From IMG/VR virus record IMGVR_UViG_3300001528_000360, positions 1 through 64,000 of that record: a stretch of 64,000 nucleotides of DNA, one strand, 5' to 3'. Below, in pieces: positions 9,197 to 57,134 of this stretch (its first letter is position 1; each line of letters opens with the position of its first letter). The position numbers were made by a program, and so were the translations under genes. The DNA is from a virus (lineage: Duplodnaviria; Caudoviricetes). The notes under the pieces are model-generated. The model had not been told where the DNA came from. It saw only the letters and a list, made by a program, of their open reading frames with translations, and made no database searches.

Positions 9197-10672
9197 TTAA
9201 TTAGGTGCTCTAAATCTAAGTTTATATTCATATCCTCCAACTTTATCAAATGTAGTAGTGATAAATGGAGCATCAACAAATGTTTTACCAGTACCTAAGT
9301 TATTAGGTTCATAAATATTAGCATGTAAATATCTGCTTTGTCTCGAACTATTGAGGTTGAATTCTGCTAATGAAGTAGGACTCATATCCTCTTTCCATGA
9401 GTATTCATATTGAATAGCATACTCAGGCATTTTTACAATATTTCCTTTAGTCCAAGCAAATGCATTGGAAGGAATATTTGTAGGAAATACTCCTGTATAT
9501 TTTGACCAGAATAAAATAGTTTCTCCATCAGGACCACACAGGAAATAATATACAGAACAAGCATAATCTAAAGTATGGCTAGTAATACTTGATCTTTTTA
9601 CATCAAATTCACCACGATATACTCTAGAAATATATTCTACCCAAGCCTTATGAATTTTATATACATTAAGATTACTATCATCTGTATATGTAATATCAAA
9701 TTCACCAGCATTTTTTGAATTAATATTATGCTTACCATATTTAATTTTCCATCCTGTGTAAGTAGCTCCATACTCACCAGTATCAATATATTCGTCTTTA
9801 TTTCCGAAGCTTGCAGCTACGTTAGAAAGATAAGGATTAAAATCATGAGTACTTGAAAAACTCATAGTTAATGATTTTAATAAATCAGGACTATTCTTAT
9901 TTAAGAAATAGTAGAAAGAGTCATTACTAATTTTATCTAATAATGCTCCAGTTGACTCATTATATAGATTTAAGTCTGGACGTGTAAAAAACACATGTGC
10001 AAATGTTTTTGGTAAAGATGTTTCAGGGAATGCTATTAAGAAACGATTAAATTTATTTAAAAGATTATTCTTAACAGCAGATACAGCATCAGCATTTAAA
10101 CCGATATTTAAGTTATTCTCAATTTTATTGATATCATTTATTACAAATGAGTAGTCATTAAAATACTTATCTTTTTTTACATTAGATTTAACTCTATCTA
10201 CTGTAGTATATGATACATAGTTTGTAATATCATCATTTAATAATTCACCAGATGTAGAGTAAATAACCCCACCACTAGATGCAGAACCAAATGAAATATA
10301 ATCACTATTCTTTTCAAGATTTTTAGCATTAACAGTAGGAGCTACATATGTAGATACAATAGGTTCAGGTTCAGGTGTTTTTACCTCAGAAGGATCATCA
10401 ACCAATTCCCAACTGGTTAAAAAAGATTTATTTAACCATACATACACAGTACCTGATGCATTAATTTTATACTTTTGAGGATCAATTAATTTATAATAAT
10501 TATTGGTTCCGCCAACATCAGGATCAGCATAAAAATAAGGTCCTTCAGGACAATTCTTTCTATATAAAATACCAGGAGATGGTGAATTTTTAGTCATAGC
10601 TGTTCTGGTAAATACACCTGTATTATCACCATTTACATAATTGAAATTACATTTATAAATCTTTTTAGCCAT
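9197..10672 (-). CDS. Putative baseplate/tail-tube initiator (tube-like fold)
   Basis: Late motif at 10709; HVFFTRPDLN and YTGVFPTNIP tube-like motifs; N-terminal domain shared with 2084..3958. Confidence 0.55.
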   Translation of the reverse strand: MAKKIYKCNFNYVNGDNTGVFTRTAMTKNSPSPGILYRKNCPEGPYFYADPDVGGTNNYYKLIDPQKYKINASGTVYVWLNKSFLTSWELVDDPSEVKTPEPEPIVSTYVAPTVNAKNLEKNSDYISFGSASSGGVIYSTSGELLNDDITNYVSYTTVDRVKSNVKKDKYFNDYSFVINDINKIENNLNIGLNADAVSAVKNNLLNKFNRFLIAFPETSLPKTFAHVFFTRPDLNLYNESTGALLDKISNDSFYYFLNKNSPDLLKSLTMSFSSTHDFNPYLSNVAASFGNKDEYIDTGEYGATYTGWKIKYGKHNINSKNAGEFDITYTDDSNLNVYKIHKAWVEYISRVYRGEFDVKRSSITSHTLDYACSVYYFLCGPDGETILFWSKYTGVFPTNIPSNAFAWTKGNIVKMPEYAIQYEYSWKEDMSPTSLAEFNLNSSRQSRYLHANIYEPNNLGTGKTFVDAPFITTTFDKVGGYEYKLRFRAPN

Positions 10673-10771
10673 CTATCATCACCTCTTTATATAAGGCTAG
10701 TTTTTATCTTATAATCTTGTTTTTTCGAGTAAGAATTATTGAGCATAAGAGAAATCAAAAGAAAAATGAAG

Positions 10772-10781
10772 TATATATTAT
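10772..10781 (+). promoter_or_regulatory. Early promoter motif TATATATTAT
   Basis: Same motif at + 20714 and - 19689, 20660, 28316, 28750, 29351, 34409, 50119, 57051, 61518, each in front of small non-structural genes or the tRNA; similar to phiKZ/AR9 early TATATTA motifs. Confidence 0.7.
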
Positions 10782-10964
10782 TAACATAGCACGTAAATTA
10801 ATATAGTAATTTTTATGCCGTAGATATTCTATGTGACATAATATTTTTAATATACTAAAACGTGCATATTAATGGTGTCACCCTCGACATATTGTGATTA
10901 AACAGGTCAACATTTCTGTAAAGACCATTTAATGAGATTATACATCTAAGGAGTGACAGCATAT

Positions 10965-11045
10965 ATGGACTTTTTGCTGAATATTTTGTATTATGCGTTA
11001 GGAATTGATGTACTTACGAAAAACCTTGATAATGTTGAAGAATAA
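10965..11045 (+). CDS. 26-aa small peptide MDFLLNILYYALGIDVLTKNLDNVEE in a structured transcript
   Basis: SD AAGGAG at 10948, own late motif at 10909, hydrophobic N-half; too short for the ORF track. Confidence 0.55.
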   Translation: MDFLLNILYYALGIDVLTKNLDNVEE

Positions 11046-11155
11046 TACCTAAAATAAATCTTTAAAATTATCATAGAATTTTCTACGGTATATTTTTTTT
11101 GTTTTCTCTGTGATGTACATATTATTAATATTACAGAAAGGATGGTGTATTTTAA

Positions 11156-12466
11156 ATGGGAATTCTCCTTGATATTGTGAATACAACCAAAGATATAAAA
11201 GCTGCTGCTAATTCTGGTTTATTAGACAATGATCTTGCTAATAAGTTCCAGAAGGCTGGTAAACAATATAGTTCCATTTCGAAGAGAGCTTCTGAAGGAA
11301 CTTTACAATTTCCTGTTTTGGTGAGCCGTGCAATTGATATTGAAACGGCTCAGAATATTTCTAAGGCACTTGAACGTAATTATACTACTTTTGCACAGAT
11401 TGCATTTAGTCACACTCCTACAGATCTGTATACTAAGAATTGGACAGCTAATGACTATATCAAGAATTTCCACCAGAATATGGGTGGAAGGACTGATAGA
11501 AATGATATTCTTCGTGCTGTTAATGCTGTCATTGATTCTTATAATGTGTTAGAGGATAATGGGCTTACGATCATGTATGCTTCTTATGAATCTGCTACTA
11601 CTAAGATTCAGGGTTGTAATAAGGAACAGTTATTCGATGTTATGGAACATCTTAGACATGATATTTTGAATAATAAATATGCTCCTAAGTCTGAAGTTAT
11701 TTATAATTTTAATAAGCCTGAACTGAATCAGAAGTATAATAATCATCATATCGTTAGTGAAGCTGTTGATGATAACAAAAAGCTTAATTACTCTTTACCT
11801 AGAGATATTCTGAAAGATAATGATGTTAAGAAAGCAAATGAATTAGTATCTACTACTCTTCATATTAAGATTCGTCTTGTGAATAAGAATGATGAAGATA
11901 TGGGTACTGTTGATTTTATTGTTGGTGTTAAATGTATTATGCATCCTGTTAATAGTGAGGATATGATCACTAATATGGTTAATGGATGCCGTAATAATAA
12001 TAAGATGTTTAACTTCCTTCGTTGGACTACTGGTGAAATTTCTTTCTTTAAGGATTTCCTTCTTAATATGAATGAAATTAAGGATGATGTTACTGCTTAC
12101 AAGACTGGTTCTTCTCCTTGGTGGTTAAGTCTTAAGAGACGTAAGTCCCTTGCTAATATGAAGGATAGTGCTTTCCTTGGTAAGAAAATTCTTCCTAATG
12201 CTTCCATTGTCATTTCTGCAGAAGAAGTTGAATTAATTAAATCTGAATTTGGATTTGACCTCTATAATCCTATTTTCTTTAATAAGATTATGAATGAGTA
12301 TTTCCTGCTTGGATTTGTTATTGTTGATAACTCTTCACAGGTTGCACATTTCTTATTTGAAGATCAGACTAATTTCCAGACAGTTACTTTCTCTGCTCTT
12401 GAGAAATCTGCTGTTAATGATGAACGTAAGTTTAAAGAAATGCTTAAACTTGTTAATAGAATGTAA
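11156..12466 (+). CDS. Putative virion structural protein
   Basis: Late motif at 11116, strong SD, first gene of a structural cluster. Confidence 0.6.
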   Translation: MGILLDIVNTTKDIKAAANSGLLDNDLANKFQKAGKQYSSISKRASEGTLQFPVLVSRAIDIETAQNISKALERNYTTFAQIAFSHTPTDLYTKNWTANDYIKNFHQNMGGRTDRNDILRAVNAVIDSYNVLEDNGLTIMYASYESATTKIQGCNKEQLFDVMEHLRHDILNNKYAPKSEVIYNFNKPELNQKYNNHHIVSEAVDDNKKLNYSLPRDILKDNDVKKANELVSTTLHIKIRLVNKNDEDMGTVDFIVGVKCIMHPVNSEDMITNMVNGCRNNNKMFNFLRWTTGEISFFKDFLLNMNEIKDDVTAYKTGSSPWWLSLKRRKSLANMKDSAFLGKKILPNASIVISAEEVELIKSEFGFDLYNPIFFNKIMNEYFLLGFVIVDNSSQVAHFLFEDQTNFQTVTFSALEKSAVNDERKFKEMLKLVNRM

Positions 12467-22943: not shown

Positions 22944-22962
22944 ATTAATGGAGGTATATATT

Positions 22963-23397
22963 ATGGAAAAGCTTAATGAGTTATTTGCTGCTCTTGTGGT
23001 TTATAGACATAATTTTCATATTCTTCATTGGAAGGTTAAGTCTTGTGACTTTGATTGTGTCCATAAGTTATTTGATGATTATGTTGATAAGTTTAATACC
23101 ATGATTGATGAAGTTGCTGAAGTTATGCTCTCTGTTGGTATGAATCCTCTTTGTCTTCAGGGTTGTATTGATCAGTTAGTAAGATCTGGTACTGAGTTTG
23201 TTGTATTAGATCCTGTTGATGACTATGATCCTAAGAAGGCTTTTGAAATTACTAATACTATGTTAACTAAATTAATGGATGTATACTGTGAAGTTTGTAA
23301 AAATGATATTCCTTCTGATATTATTAGTAAGTTAGATGAGCATAAGTATTGGCTTCGTATTGAAGCATTCTATAAGAATGGTCGTAGATTAATGTAA
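22963..23397 (+). CDS. dps: Dps/ferritin-like protein
   Basis: HWKVK...FDCVHKLFDD...IDEVAE ferroxidase motif; C-terminal HKYWL; SD GGAGG before ATG 22963. Confidence 0.8.
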   Translation: MEKLNELFAALVVYRHNFHILHWKVKSCDFDCVHKLFDDYVDKFNTMIDEVAEVMLSVGMNPLCLQGCIDQLVRSGTEFVVLDPVDDYDPKKAFEITNTMLTKLMDVYCEVCKNDIPSDIISKLDEHKYWLRIEAFYKNGRRLM

Positions 23398-55792: not shown

Positions 55793-56814
55793 TCAATCAA
55801 GATCTGCAGGATCTGCCCAAAAACCATATGGACACATGATATGTGTACATTCAATTTTGTCATCTTTAGGAATACCCATTTTGCATATATCTGTACATAC
55901 AAAATGAATTTCCTCAATTGAAAGATTGCCTTTCTTATACTCTTCTCGAATATTAATATTTGTTAAATCTTTCATTTTACTGAGCCTTCAGCAACTTATT
56001 CAACTGACGCTTAGCCTTCTTGATGAGCTTATCATTAATAACTTCACCCTTAGAAGTAAGCTTTGCAATACGATACTCGAAATGTTCCTTAGTTCTAAAA
56101 TTCATGATATATACCTCCTGAAATTTTTTATATAATTAACAAATATTTGTTAATTAATCATTTTTATCAGACTGATTTTCAAAAATATTCATAATATCAT
56201 CATAAACATTTTTTACAGTCTCTCCAACAATTTCCATGCGTTCATATGTAACATTCTGTGCAATAATCATTTTTTCAATTGTTTCTTTACTAGGGATAAA
56301 GATACTAAATAAAAAAGAAGTACATAATATAATTACAGATGTTTTAATTACTTTAATATATCCTTTTCTATTTAAGTTCTCATTATTTCCACAGCCAATA
56401 ATTATCCAACCGACAAATAAACCTATAGTACCTATACAAAATATAGGTATAATTAATGATAAAATATTTTTTATATTATTGCAAATATCAATTACATAAA
56501 AGATCCAAGGATTAATAATAGGAGTCATGAATATTTATTTCCTTTCTTTAATATAAATCTTCAGAATATAATTCTGTTTCATTTCTATCTTGTTTCATAT
56601 GTATTGCAGTTGCTGATAATTGACCACATTTTAGAGCATGCTCAAAAGCATCAATTCTATTGAGAAATACACATTCATTTGTAAGAAAACCTTGTTCAAT
56701 TCTGGTTAATCCAATATCAGGATTTAAAGATCTTACAGCAGCAAGACCATGTCCATGACGAATACAGCCAATTACTATTTCTTTATCTATACGAATAGCT
56801 GCACAAATAATCAT
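55793..56814 (-). other. Small hypothetical genes (55793..55975, 55977..56105, 56154..56528 membrane protein, 56548..56814)
   Basis: Packed ORFs with SD sites; 56548 has the IICAAI...RH...EQGFLT...LYSEDLY pattern common in phages. Confidence 0.6.
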
Positions 56815-56911
56815 ATAAGTAATTCCTTTCTTAAAAAATAAAAGTTATAGAGAGTATAACCAATTAAGGTTATACTCTCTATATAAATTCTCGATGTAAT
56901 CGAGAACTCCT

Positions 56912-56998
56912 TGGTAGGGGATATCAGATTTGAACTGATACGGTATTTCTACCGCGGGATTTTAAGTCCCGTGTGGCTGCCTGTTACACCAATCCCCC
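56912..56998 (-). tRNA. trnL: tRNA-Leu (anticodon TAA)
   Basis: Acceptor GGGGGAT/ATCCCCT + ACCA; anticodon arm CGGGA-CTTAAAA-TCCCG; long variable arm; T arm ATCAG-TTCAAAT-CTGAT; early motif at 57051. Confidence 0.95.
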
Positions 56999-57134
56999 AT
57001 ATCTAATAATATGTTAATAGTAAAATAATTTTTTATTATTTTACTATTTAATAATATATATCTATAAATAATTTTGATTTTATGAAAGTAAAAACCAGGA
57101 TAAGGATATTACTCCTTATCCTGGTCATAATATT

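Follow-up and report, generated by a model that had tools for sequence, protein, structure and literature searches.

The T4 genes e (lysozyme) and soc are carried on early read-through transcripts in which the ribosome site is locked in a hairpin, and a late promoter lies inside this hairpin. In hok/sok of plasmid R1 and aapA1/isoA1 of Helicobacter pylori, the full-length mRNA is held inactive by long-distance pairing of its 5' and 3' ends and by sequestration of the ribosome site. Dual-function small RNAs (sRNAs) are known from Bacillus subtilis (SR1/SR1P), Staphylococcus aureus (RNAIII/hld) and Escherichia coli (SgrS/SgrT). The whole programme of AR9-like jumbo phages is run by two phage-encoded multisubunit RNA polymerases. 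To our knowledge, timing control beyond promoter choice is poorly understood in these phages, and our search of the literature found no regulatory RNA described for them. Here we describe an element in the 483-nucleotide (nt) gap between two divergent virion genes of the IMG/VR virus record IMGVR_UViG_3300001528_000360 (hereafter G000; 152,429 bp, 29.7% G+C, completeness about 62%). The window that we analyzed comprises the first 64 kb of this record. We consider it somewhat better than an even bet (probability roughly 0.55, for the explanation taken as a whole) that the gap encodes a discrete early transcript, made by the virion RNA polymerase from about position 10788, and that the element is a T4 e/soc-style two-promoter translational switch with AR9-type promoters. 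This switch may be combined with a trans-acting antisense role.

The comparison with T4 e and soc had been drawn in an original prediction, made from the letters of the window, and it fits. As in T4, the predicted early start lies upstream and an upstream segment pairs with the ribosome site. The late motif is placed between the two strands, so that the shorter predicted transcript would be unable to form the helix and would be translatable. Several features set the locus apart from the T4 genes. It has AR9-type promoters, recognized by two multisubunit polymerases that the phage encodes, and its early RNA is predicted to be a separate, terminated transcript of about 310 nt instead of a continuation from a gene upstream. 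The RNA ends are brought together at a U run by a second long-range helix, the gene is a 26-codon open reading frame (ORF) and not an enzyme or a capsid protein, and the masking strand also matches another mRNA. All positions and sequences that had been quoted were located in the window, and two divergent virion genes do flank the gap, which had been described as lying between divergent structural operons.

A candidate early RNA between divergent virion genes

The rightward virion protein shares 28-29% identity with g214, a minor virion structural protein of the Bacillus phages AR9 and PBS1, and we therefore regard the phage as an uncultivated, distant AR9-like jumbo phage. A protein search with the rightward gene returned hundreds of relatives. 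Our set of close relatives consists of ten loci, whose rightward proteins are 61-77% identical, and one partial locus. All share the divergent synteny, with a gap of 445-530 nt, and a common order of conserved blocks. The 5' part reads TATATATTAT, (A)GCACGU, 5' arm, ACGUGC, C-rich masking strand and CATATTGTGATT, and the 3' part continues with TCAACA-N4-TGTAA, AAGGAG, the small ORF, 3' arm and T run. An IMG/VR profile search contributed more distant lineages, in which the best aligned segment is 28-60% identical.

The first block, TATATATTAT at 10772-10781, had been proposed as an early promoter. It occurs in 37 copies in the 152-kb record, where about 7.5 are expected, and the copies share a purine-rich 5' extension. 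The motif is invariant across the relatives. For AR9, the early consensus is given as AAATATATATTAT-6N-G(+1) (Lavysh et al., 2017; PMC5312081). The orthologous gap of AR9, at the same position between the homologous divergent virion genes (g213/g214), contains an early promoter annotated in KU878088.1 and an early start at 181724 from differential RNA sequencing (dRNA-seq) (PMC5312081). The genome-wide motif family and this mapped start at the orthologous site both support the early promoter at 10772. Experimental mapping of the start comes from the AR9 ortholog; in the phage studied here, the early promoter is predicted from its motif.

Among all AR9 early starts, the tables of the AR9 study assign to 181724 the longest "untranslated region" (UTR; 340 nt) and the highest terminator exonuclease (TEX) enrichment, 3.87 (PMC5312081). 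According to the same source, g214 reaches 0.69, 20.7 and 1427 fragments per kilobase per million reads (FPKM) at 5, 20 and 40 min, and early genes stand at 30-67 at 5 min (PMC5312081). With g214 at 0.69 FPKM at 5 min, the early RNA of AR9 therefore stops short of g214. The AR9 site shares with our locus the early motif, the 5'-3' helix, the masked Shine-Dalgarno (SD) sequence, a small unannotated ORF and the U run. An internal late motif is lacking there, and we found no trans target for it. In the text of the AR9 paper that was searched, the site appears only as the g214 promoter, and no RNA structure, ORF or function is described for it (PMC5312081).

The unannotated AR9 ORF comprises 15 codons (KU878088.1, 181843-181890, plus strand, equal to 2659-2706 of locus L156), has a GGAGG ribosome site and lies within the 340-nt "UTR". 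It is flanked by a 12-bp 5'-3' helix (181746-181757 with 181909-181920), followed by a terminator hairpin and a U run.

The predicted early RNAs of the relatives measure 298-328 nt and contain the same blocks as the RNA predicted for the window (Table 1). A U run is kept in all relatives, and the early RNA would terminate at this run, at 11093-11100 in the window.

Elsewhere in the record, most of the 37 early-promoter motifs stand 18-84 nt upstream of a gene. Three others have long gene-free leaders of about 230, 475 and 376 nt (window about 56800-57060, minus; G000 116555, minus; G000 149279, plus) and could give further early non-coding RNAs. The copy of TATATATTAT at window 22955-22964 overlaps a ribosome site and start codon (GGAGGTATATATTATGG); this is probably a chance occurrence and no early promoter.

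A fold predicted to mask the start of a small ORF

RNAfold gave -70.3 kcal/mol for 10785-11100, compared to -52.2 +/- 4.8 kcal/mol for dinucleotide shuffles (z = -3.8), none of which (0 of 100) folded as well. Both long-range helices, termed P1 and P2, are present in the minimum free energy (MFE) structure as well as in the centroid. The segment that would remain in a late transcript, 10920-11100, folds unremarkably when taken alone (z = -1.3). RNAalifold, run on the RNAs of ten relatives from start site to T run, recovered P1 and P2 independently. Counting pairs over three helices revealed 93.9% standard pairs, versus 26-45% when the partner strand was slid by 1-3 columns. Double changes were observed at 7 pairs versus 1.9 +/- 1.1 in shuffles, none of which (0 of 500) scored as high. 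Comparison with the relatives hence supports both long-range helices.

P1 joins the ends of the RNA. A closing helix of about 18 bp directly before the T run had been predicted, and besides its recovery by the folding programs it is backed by covariation: a 12-bp core is conserved and 6 of its 12 pairs carry compensatory double changes (six of the seven in total). The 3' arm runs straight into the U run, with no gap, in 9 of 14 lineages (z = -3 to -6 versus shuffles). The remaining lineages, AR9 included, have a local terminator hairpin instead; in AR9 the 12-bp 5'-3' helix is still present upstream of this hairpin. P1 probably serves as terminator stem of the early RNA.

A shorter helix, P0, involves the extreme 5' end of the RNA and was found in 9 of 10 relatives. 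It shows one compensatory change from G-C to A-U in L135, and both of its strands are lost jointly in L007. P0 crosses P1 and both are conserved; hence they form either a pseudoknot or alternative folds. A hairpin in the loop of P2, P3, is present in 11 of 11 relatives, while its stem sequences vary (e.g., GGUC/GACC, CCC/GGG and CCAAUC/GAUUGG).

P2 pairs the C-rich strand with the SD, the spacer and the start codon of the small ORF; AAUGG(A/G)C has as its partner a conserved GCCAUU located after ACGUGC. Among close relatives 92.8% of the cells are paired, and the helix is too conserved there for double changes. In distant lineages the spacer between SD and AUG differs and is complemented by the lineage's own upstream strand, most clearly in L145, L147, L142 and L140. 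Complementarity of a C-rich upstream strand to SD, spacer and AUG is kept down to about 40% flank identity and in AR9. We then compared the accessibility of the start codon using the partition function. In the early RNA, the unpaired probability of the AUG is at most 0.053 in 8 of 10 relatives (median about 0.02), whereas in the RNA from the late start it ranges from 0.09 to 0.71 in the ten relatives (median about 0.37). In these predictions the early RNA is masked and the late RNA open, as had been proposed. The accompanying claim that P2 buries both SD and AUG stood in part: the helix was found, and AUG and spacer are strongly paired, but the SD core is only partly paired. According to these models, the early fold would lower translation of the small ORF.

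The ORF itself is well supported by comparison. Its aligned start is ATG in ten relatives and GTG in L159. From there the reading frame runs for 20-39 codons in all 11 relatives, and the two alternative frames meet a stop after 3-20 codons. Conservation is highest at codon position 2, with a mean pairwise difference of 0.29 versus 0.48 and 0.44. The sole indel in the N-terminal part is an in-frame 3-nt deletion in L007, and gene callers called the ORF as a gene in six relatives. By these comparative criteria the small ORF is real, and its translation is predicted. The original prediction had named a lack of conservation of ORF and pairing as the result that would speak against it; both were found conserved, the ORF in the correct frame only.

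The peptides combine a hydrophobic first half with an acidic tail, have a net charge of 0 to -7 and are interrupted by D/E. Their longest stretch without D/E/K/R is 6-14 residues, which is too short for a membrane span. These features argue against a membrane-spanning toxin or holin, and the suggestion of a lysis-timing or host-killing peptide is not borne out by so acidic a product. Searches of the small ORFs against Pfam and PHROGs yielded nothing significant (no E-value <0.004, all under the curated cut-offs), and a 57-residue relative had no usable match in the ESM Atlas. In more distant lineages the ORF at this site comprises 53-81 codons, and in AR9 it comprises 15. What is conserved throughout the family is the presence of a masked ORF, not a recognisable peptide.

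A conserved late promoter motif inside the fold

In AR9 the late consensus is AACA-6N-TA/G (PMC5312081). We trained a late-promoter matrix on 30 gene-proximal AACA-N6-T[AG] sites of the record (consensus AACAnnnnTGTAAnG), excluding 10909-10920 from the training. Scored with this independent matrix, 10909-10920 ranks 2nd of 187 sites. All close relatives (11 of 11) retain the motif without any change in its spacing. Even in L007, where a 6-nt tandem duplication (ATCAAC ATCAAC, about 2225-2250) lies just 5' of it, the AACA-N6-TA spacing is intact. The internal late motif proposed at 10909 is thus a good candidate promoter, although it is not general, being absent in AR9. From its motif, A10920 is the start that we expect to be used in infection.

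The flanking genes have late promoter motifs of their own. That of the leftward gene matches AACA-N6-TA, ranks 4th of 187 by the matrix and is conserved in the relatives. At the position of the rightward gene's promoter, 11116-11127, most close relatives read AACATTAATATA, and in AR9 a late start is mapped 53 nt upstream of g214 (PMC5312081). The window has TACA at this promoter where most close relatives have the consensus AACA. This could make it a weaker promoter, and read-through from 10920 might then matter more in this phage.

Complementarity to the leader of a second early gene

Between the masking strand and the late motif lies a block ending in a 12-nt stretch, CATATTGTGATT, that is conserved among the close relatives; within it, ATATTGTGATT is invariant in all close relatives that cover the block. 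The block has no strong partner in the cis fold, and the ensemble leaves parts of it unpaired. Apart from the element itself, the 152-kb record has a single copy of the 10-mer from this block, on the opposite strand at about 111925. This site consists of an early promoter (TATATATTAT at 111949, minus strand), a 27-nt leader and a 213-residue ORF, P0121. From its nucleotide +1 on, the P0121 leader (111906-111933, minus) complements AUAUUGUGAU, and 5 nt further it complements 9 nt of the masking strand, GUCACCCUC. The proposed pairing takes in all 27 nt of the leader, its SD included. The predicted duplex reaches -29.2 kcal/mol; the next best of the 37 early leaders of the record reaches -18.6 and the median is -10.6 kcal/mol.

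A corresponding match was found in two further genomes. G001, a complete 264-kb relative, encodes a P0121 ortholog with an early promoter, and the ortholog's leader matches the element perfectly over 15 nt from +1. In the L139 genome (flank identity about 52%), AUUAUUGUC is found in the element and GACAAUAAU at the beginning of the ortholog's leader. Here the match covers 9 + 9 nt from +1, with a 3-nt loop followed by AGGGUGGCA opposite UGUCACCCU. Relative to our phage, the change from G to C in the element (AUAUUGUGAU to AUUAUUGUC) is matched by a change from C to G in the leader (AUCACAAUAU to GACAAUAAU). The cognate duplexes have z = -5.7, -5.3 and -4.3 versus shuffled leaders, all begin at target nucleotide 1, and each cognate pair is the best in its row and column of the cross-genome matrix. 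The suggestion that the early RNA acts as a non-coding RNA gains support from this predicted pairing.

The three genomes covered by this trans test amount to two independent lineages. Three other lineages with an early promoter at the ortholog showed no complementarity (z = -0.7, -0.9 and +0.5). Among the 38 mapped early leaders of AR9 we found no clean target, only short SD-context matches to CCUUAAUAAA, and none of the phage records searched, AR9 included, has a P0121 homologue. The RNAduplex energy by itself is not unique, since about 8 of 20,318 random genome windows are as low, through long loop-rich duplexes. The argument for pairing in trans rests on the +1 position, the block structure and the conservation, and not on duplex energy alone. 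The duplex scans also met short-repeat arrays (GATTCATTAT... / GATACTATTAG...) at about 91320 (plus) and 149440 (minus) of G000, which are unrelated to the element.

P0121 is a member of a conserved family of unannotated proteins, and its 213 residues had no significant match in Pfam or PHROGs (no E-value <0.004). The AlphaFold model (mean predicted local distance difference test score, pLDDT, 85.5) shows an N-terminal beta domain and a C-terminal domain of four to five helices (residues 126-195). Foldseek found nothing for the model at E <= 0.001 (E > 1). With the C-terminal domain, VIA-align gave Z scores of 3.3-5.5, mostly to XRE-type helix-turn-helix (HTH) domains. We take an XRE-type HTH-like fold of the modelled domain weakly, as a lead and not as an assignment.

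Features of the locus and database searches

The coordinates of all features are collected in Table 1.

Table 1. Features of the gap, the flanking genes and the proposed trans target. Positions refer to the window unless G000 is given.
Feature	Position	Strand	Remarks
Early (virion RNA polymerase type) promoter motif AAGTATATATTAT	10769..10781	plus	predicted start A10788 or G10789
Predicted early RNA, ~313 nt	10788..11100	plus	early start to U run; fold z = -3.8
P0 5' strand GCACGU	10789..10794	plus	extreme 5' end of RNA; pairs with 10860-10865
P1 5' arm	10814..10832	plus	helix closing the RNA ends; 18 bp with 11073-11092
P0 3' strand ACGUGC	10860..10865	plus	adjoins masking strand directly
P2 masking strand (anti-AUG, anti-spacer, anti-SD)	10865..10885	plus	pairs with 10949-10967; GUCACCCUC at 10877-10885
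Block ACATATTGTGATT, proposed trans seed	10887..10899	plus	last 12 nt conserved in close relatives
P3 hairpin inside P2 loop	10897..10933	plus	late promoter motif in apical part
Internal late (non-virion RNA polymerase type) promoter motif AACATTTCTGTA	10909..10920	plus	AACA-N6-TA; predicted start A10920
Shine-Dalgarno AAGGAG	10948..10953	plus	in all close relatives, 8-11 nt upstream of start codon
Small ORF, 26 codons + stop	10965..11045	plus	ATG 10965, TAA 11045; comparative evidence
P1 3' arm	11073..11092	plus	immediately 5' of U run
U run (T8), presumed 3' end of early RNA	11093..11100	plus	directly 3' of P1 3' arm
Late promoter of leftward virion gene, AACAAGATTATA	10710..10721	minus	predicted start 10710, 38 nt before ATG
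Near-consensus late promoter of rightward gene, TACATATTATTA	11116..11127	plus	
Leftward virion gene	9197-10672	minus	resembles Phage_TTP_15 and phrog_21400
Rightward virion gene	11156-12466	plus	phrog_23804
P0121 gene	G000 111267-111949	minus	early-promoter-driven; outside window; locus L161

Among 50,697 phage records, blastn found nothing that matched the region, and a scan of 10400-11400 with Rfam 15 gave chance-level rows only (E = 2-10, far under the gathering scores). The 15-mer alone, scanned in IMG/VR, had more than 100 chance matches. A composite motif scan of IMG/VR found one additional phage, and the same kind of scan in the JGI metagenomes found chance matches only. The count from a sigma-70 promoter scan was as expected from shuffles, and the sole terminator-like site of a terminator scan falls within the next gene.

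Discussion

The helices, the covariation, the ORF and both promoter motifs were obtained by computation and comparison, and from them we infer that the early RNA ends at the U run, that the late promoter is used and that translation is affected. The virion polymerase would start at about 10788, as comparison and the AR9 experiment indicate. Its RNA would fold into P0, P1, P2 and P3, with the ORF start masked and the ends joined beside the U run, a step supported by structure and covariation. P1 and the U run would then end the transcript and keep early transcription out of the late virion operon. Late in infection, the non-virion polymerase would start at A10920 within the fold, judging from the motif, and give an unmasked peptide mRNA. 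This late RNA would lack both 5' arms, so that its AUG is open, and also the 5' half of the terminator stem. In addition, the masked early RNA may pair with the P0121 leader, block P0121 and free the small ORF, for which the complementarity in two lineages speaks.

Several observations weigh against this switch, and they concern the mask, the late promoter and the peptide. The unpaired probability of the SD core AGGAG is 0.22-0.58 in the early and 0.07-0.75 in the late RNA. There is no consistent difference between the two, and the main targets of the mask in the models are therefore the spacer and the start codon. AR9 has a non-consensus sequence in place of the internal late motif, which is also absent in L139, L142, L143, L146, L147 and L149; L141 and L150 carry it. 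No late start is listed at the internal site in the AR9 promoter-table rows examined (PMC5312081). Lineages without the motif still mask their ORF, and the mask therefore predates the late promoter; these lineages must have another release mechanism or another purpose for the mask. The rightward virion gene has its own late promoter and does not require read-through. Furthermore, ORF length varies from 15 to 81 codons across lineages, and hhalign of the 26-39-residue against the about 56-residue ORF groups gave a probability of 5%, that is, no detectable homology. Selection may act on something other than the peptide itself.

The element could instead be a transcriptional insulator, in which a long-range terminator keeps early transcription, from a promoter serving otherwise, away from the late virion operon and the ORF and its mask are incidental or tolerated. 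The direct contact of P1 3' arm and U run in 9 of 14 lineages is what such a device should show, ORF sequence and length are poorly conserved, and AR9 g214 stays silent early in infection although an early start is mapped upstream of it (PMC5312081). We nevertheless consider the insulator improbable, since it leaves unexplained why an early promoter is kept at the site in every lineage, why the ORF is open in 11 of 11 relatives with a correctly spaced SD, why the masking helix covaries, and why an invariant block matches another leader. Still less credit is due to the view that the gap is simply a long 5' UTR of a rightward virion gene that an early and a late promoter together would keep "continuously expressed". 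Table S2 of the AR9 study does assign the early start to g214, with its 340-nt UTR, but the 0.69 FPKM of g214 at 5 min is late-gene behaviour (PMC5312081), and a conserved helix and U run stand between start and gene in nearly all lineages. An equally poor chance is given to an mRNA of the type I toxin-antitoxin kind or for a lysis-timing peptide, modelled on hok and aapA1, in which an inert full-length RNA is activated by processing or a late start and encodes a membrane-damaging peptide. The long-distance fold-back of the 5' and 3' ends, the sequestered ribosome site and a small ORF with hydrophobic N-terminal half do recall these mRNAs, and this part of the resemblance, seen already in the original prediction, was confirmed. 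The membrane-active peptide and the antisense RNA were not. The peptides are acidic (net charge 0 to -7), have uncharged runs of 6-14 residues at most and no membrane-spanning stretch, match nothing in Pfam or PHROGs and are not conserved between sub-clades. On the minus strand, no early or late phage-type promoter motif was found in 10 of 10 relatives, and the AR9 promoter-table rows examined list no antisense start for the gap (PMC5312081). The proposed activation, by a second promoter or an RNA in trans, also differs from the 3' trimming of hok and aapA1.

A dual-function regulatory RNA, which acts in trans on the P0121 leader and blocks its translation or alters its stability, is compatible with the switch, and we judge it to fall a little short of even odds. 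Pairing with the target would also expose the small ORF, because the same strand masks it. The sole non-self complement of the 10-mer sits exactly at +1 of an early transcript and is followed by the 9-nt complement of the masking strand. This leader forms by far the best duplex of the 37, the ortholog leaders of G001 and L139 match as well, with a compensatory change and z = -4.3 to -5.7, and the block is invariant in close relatives while the cis fold does not need it. Set against this are the confinement to three genomes from two independent lineages, three other lineages without complementarity, and the lack of a clean AR9 target among 38 leaders. About 8 of 20,318 random windows equal the duplex energy, the masking strand is occupied in cis and its accessibility is uncertain, and part of the match is expected for any strong SD. 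In keeping with known dual-function sRNAs, a single RNA in the range of 200-500 nt would encode a peptide and carry a region complementary to the translation start of another mRNA. Unlike them, it would be phage-encoded and made by a virion-borne polymerase, its base-pairing region doubles as cis-mask of its own ORF, and an internal promoter would yield a coding-only isoform. A fuller version joins both ideas into a two-way RNA switch, which we offer tentatively and regard as rather doubtful. In it, a 16S-like strand and an 11-nt seed would either lock the RNA's own ORF or clamp an early HTH-like regulator gene by its leader, over the whole length between +1 and the SD. Gene silencing would thereby be coupled to peptide release, and the internal promoter would later bypass the lock. 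The terminator would be promoter-specific, because only transcripts from the early promoter contain the 5' half of the stem.

At the strength given above for the two-promoter switch, the element is a candidate regulatory RNA for AR9-like phages. It accounts for the odd early promoter of AR9 that stands, with a 340-nt "UTR", before a late virion gene. A masked small ORF in a closed, terminated early RNA appears conserved in a broad clade whose members are mostly uncultivated. Should the long-range helix be the stem of the terminator, the choice of promoter would decide whether the transcript is terminated. The early RNA and the P0121 leader form a concrete, testable RNA-RNA pair, and if the trans pairing is true, the leaders of L003, L005 and L008 are predicted to start with AUCACAAUAUGAUG. 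AR9 and PBS1 grow on Bacillus subtilis 168, which makes the core claims tractable in the laboratory.

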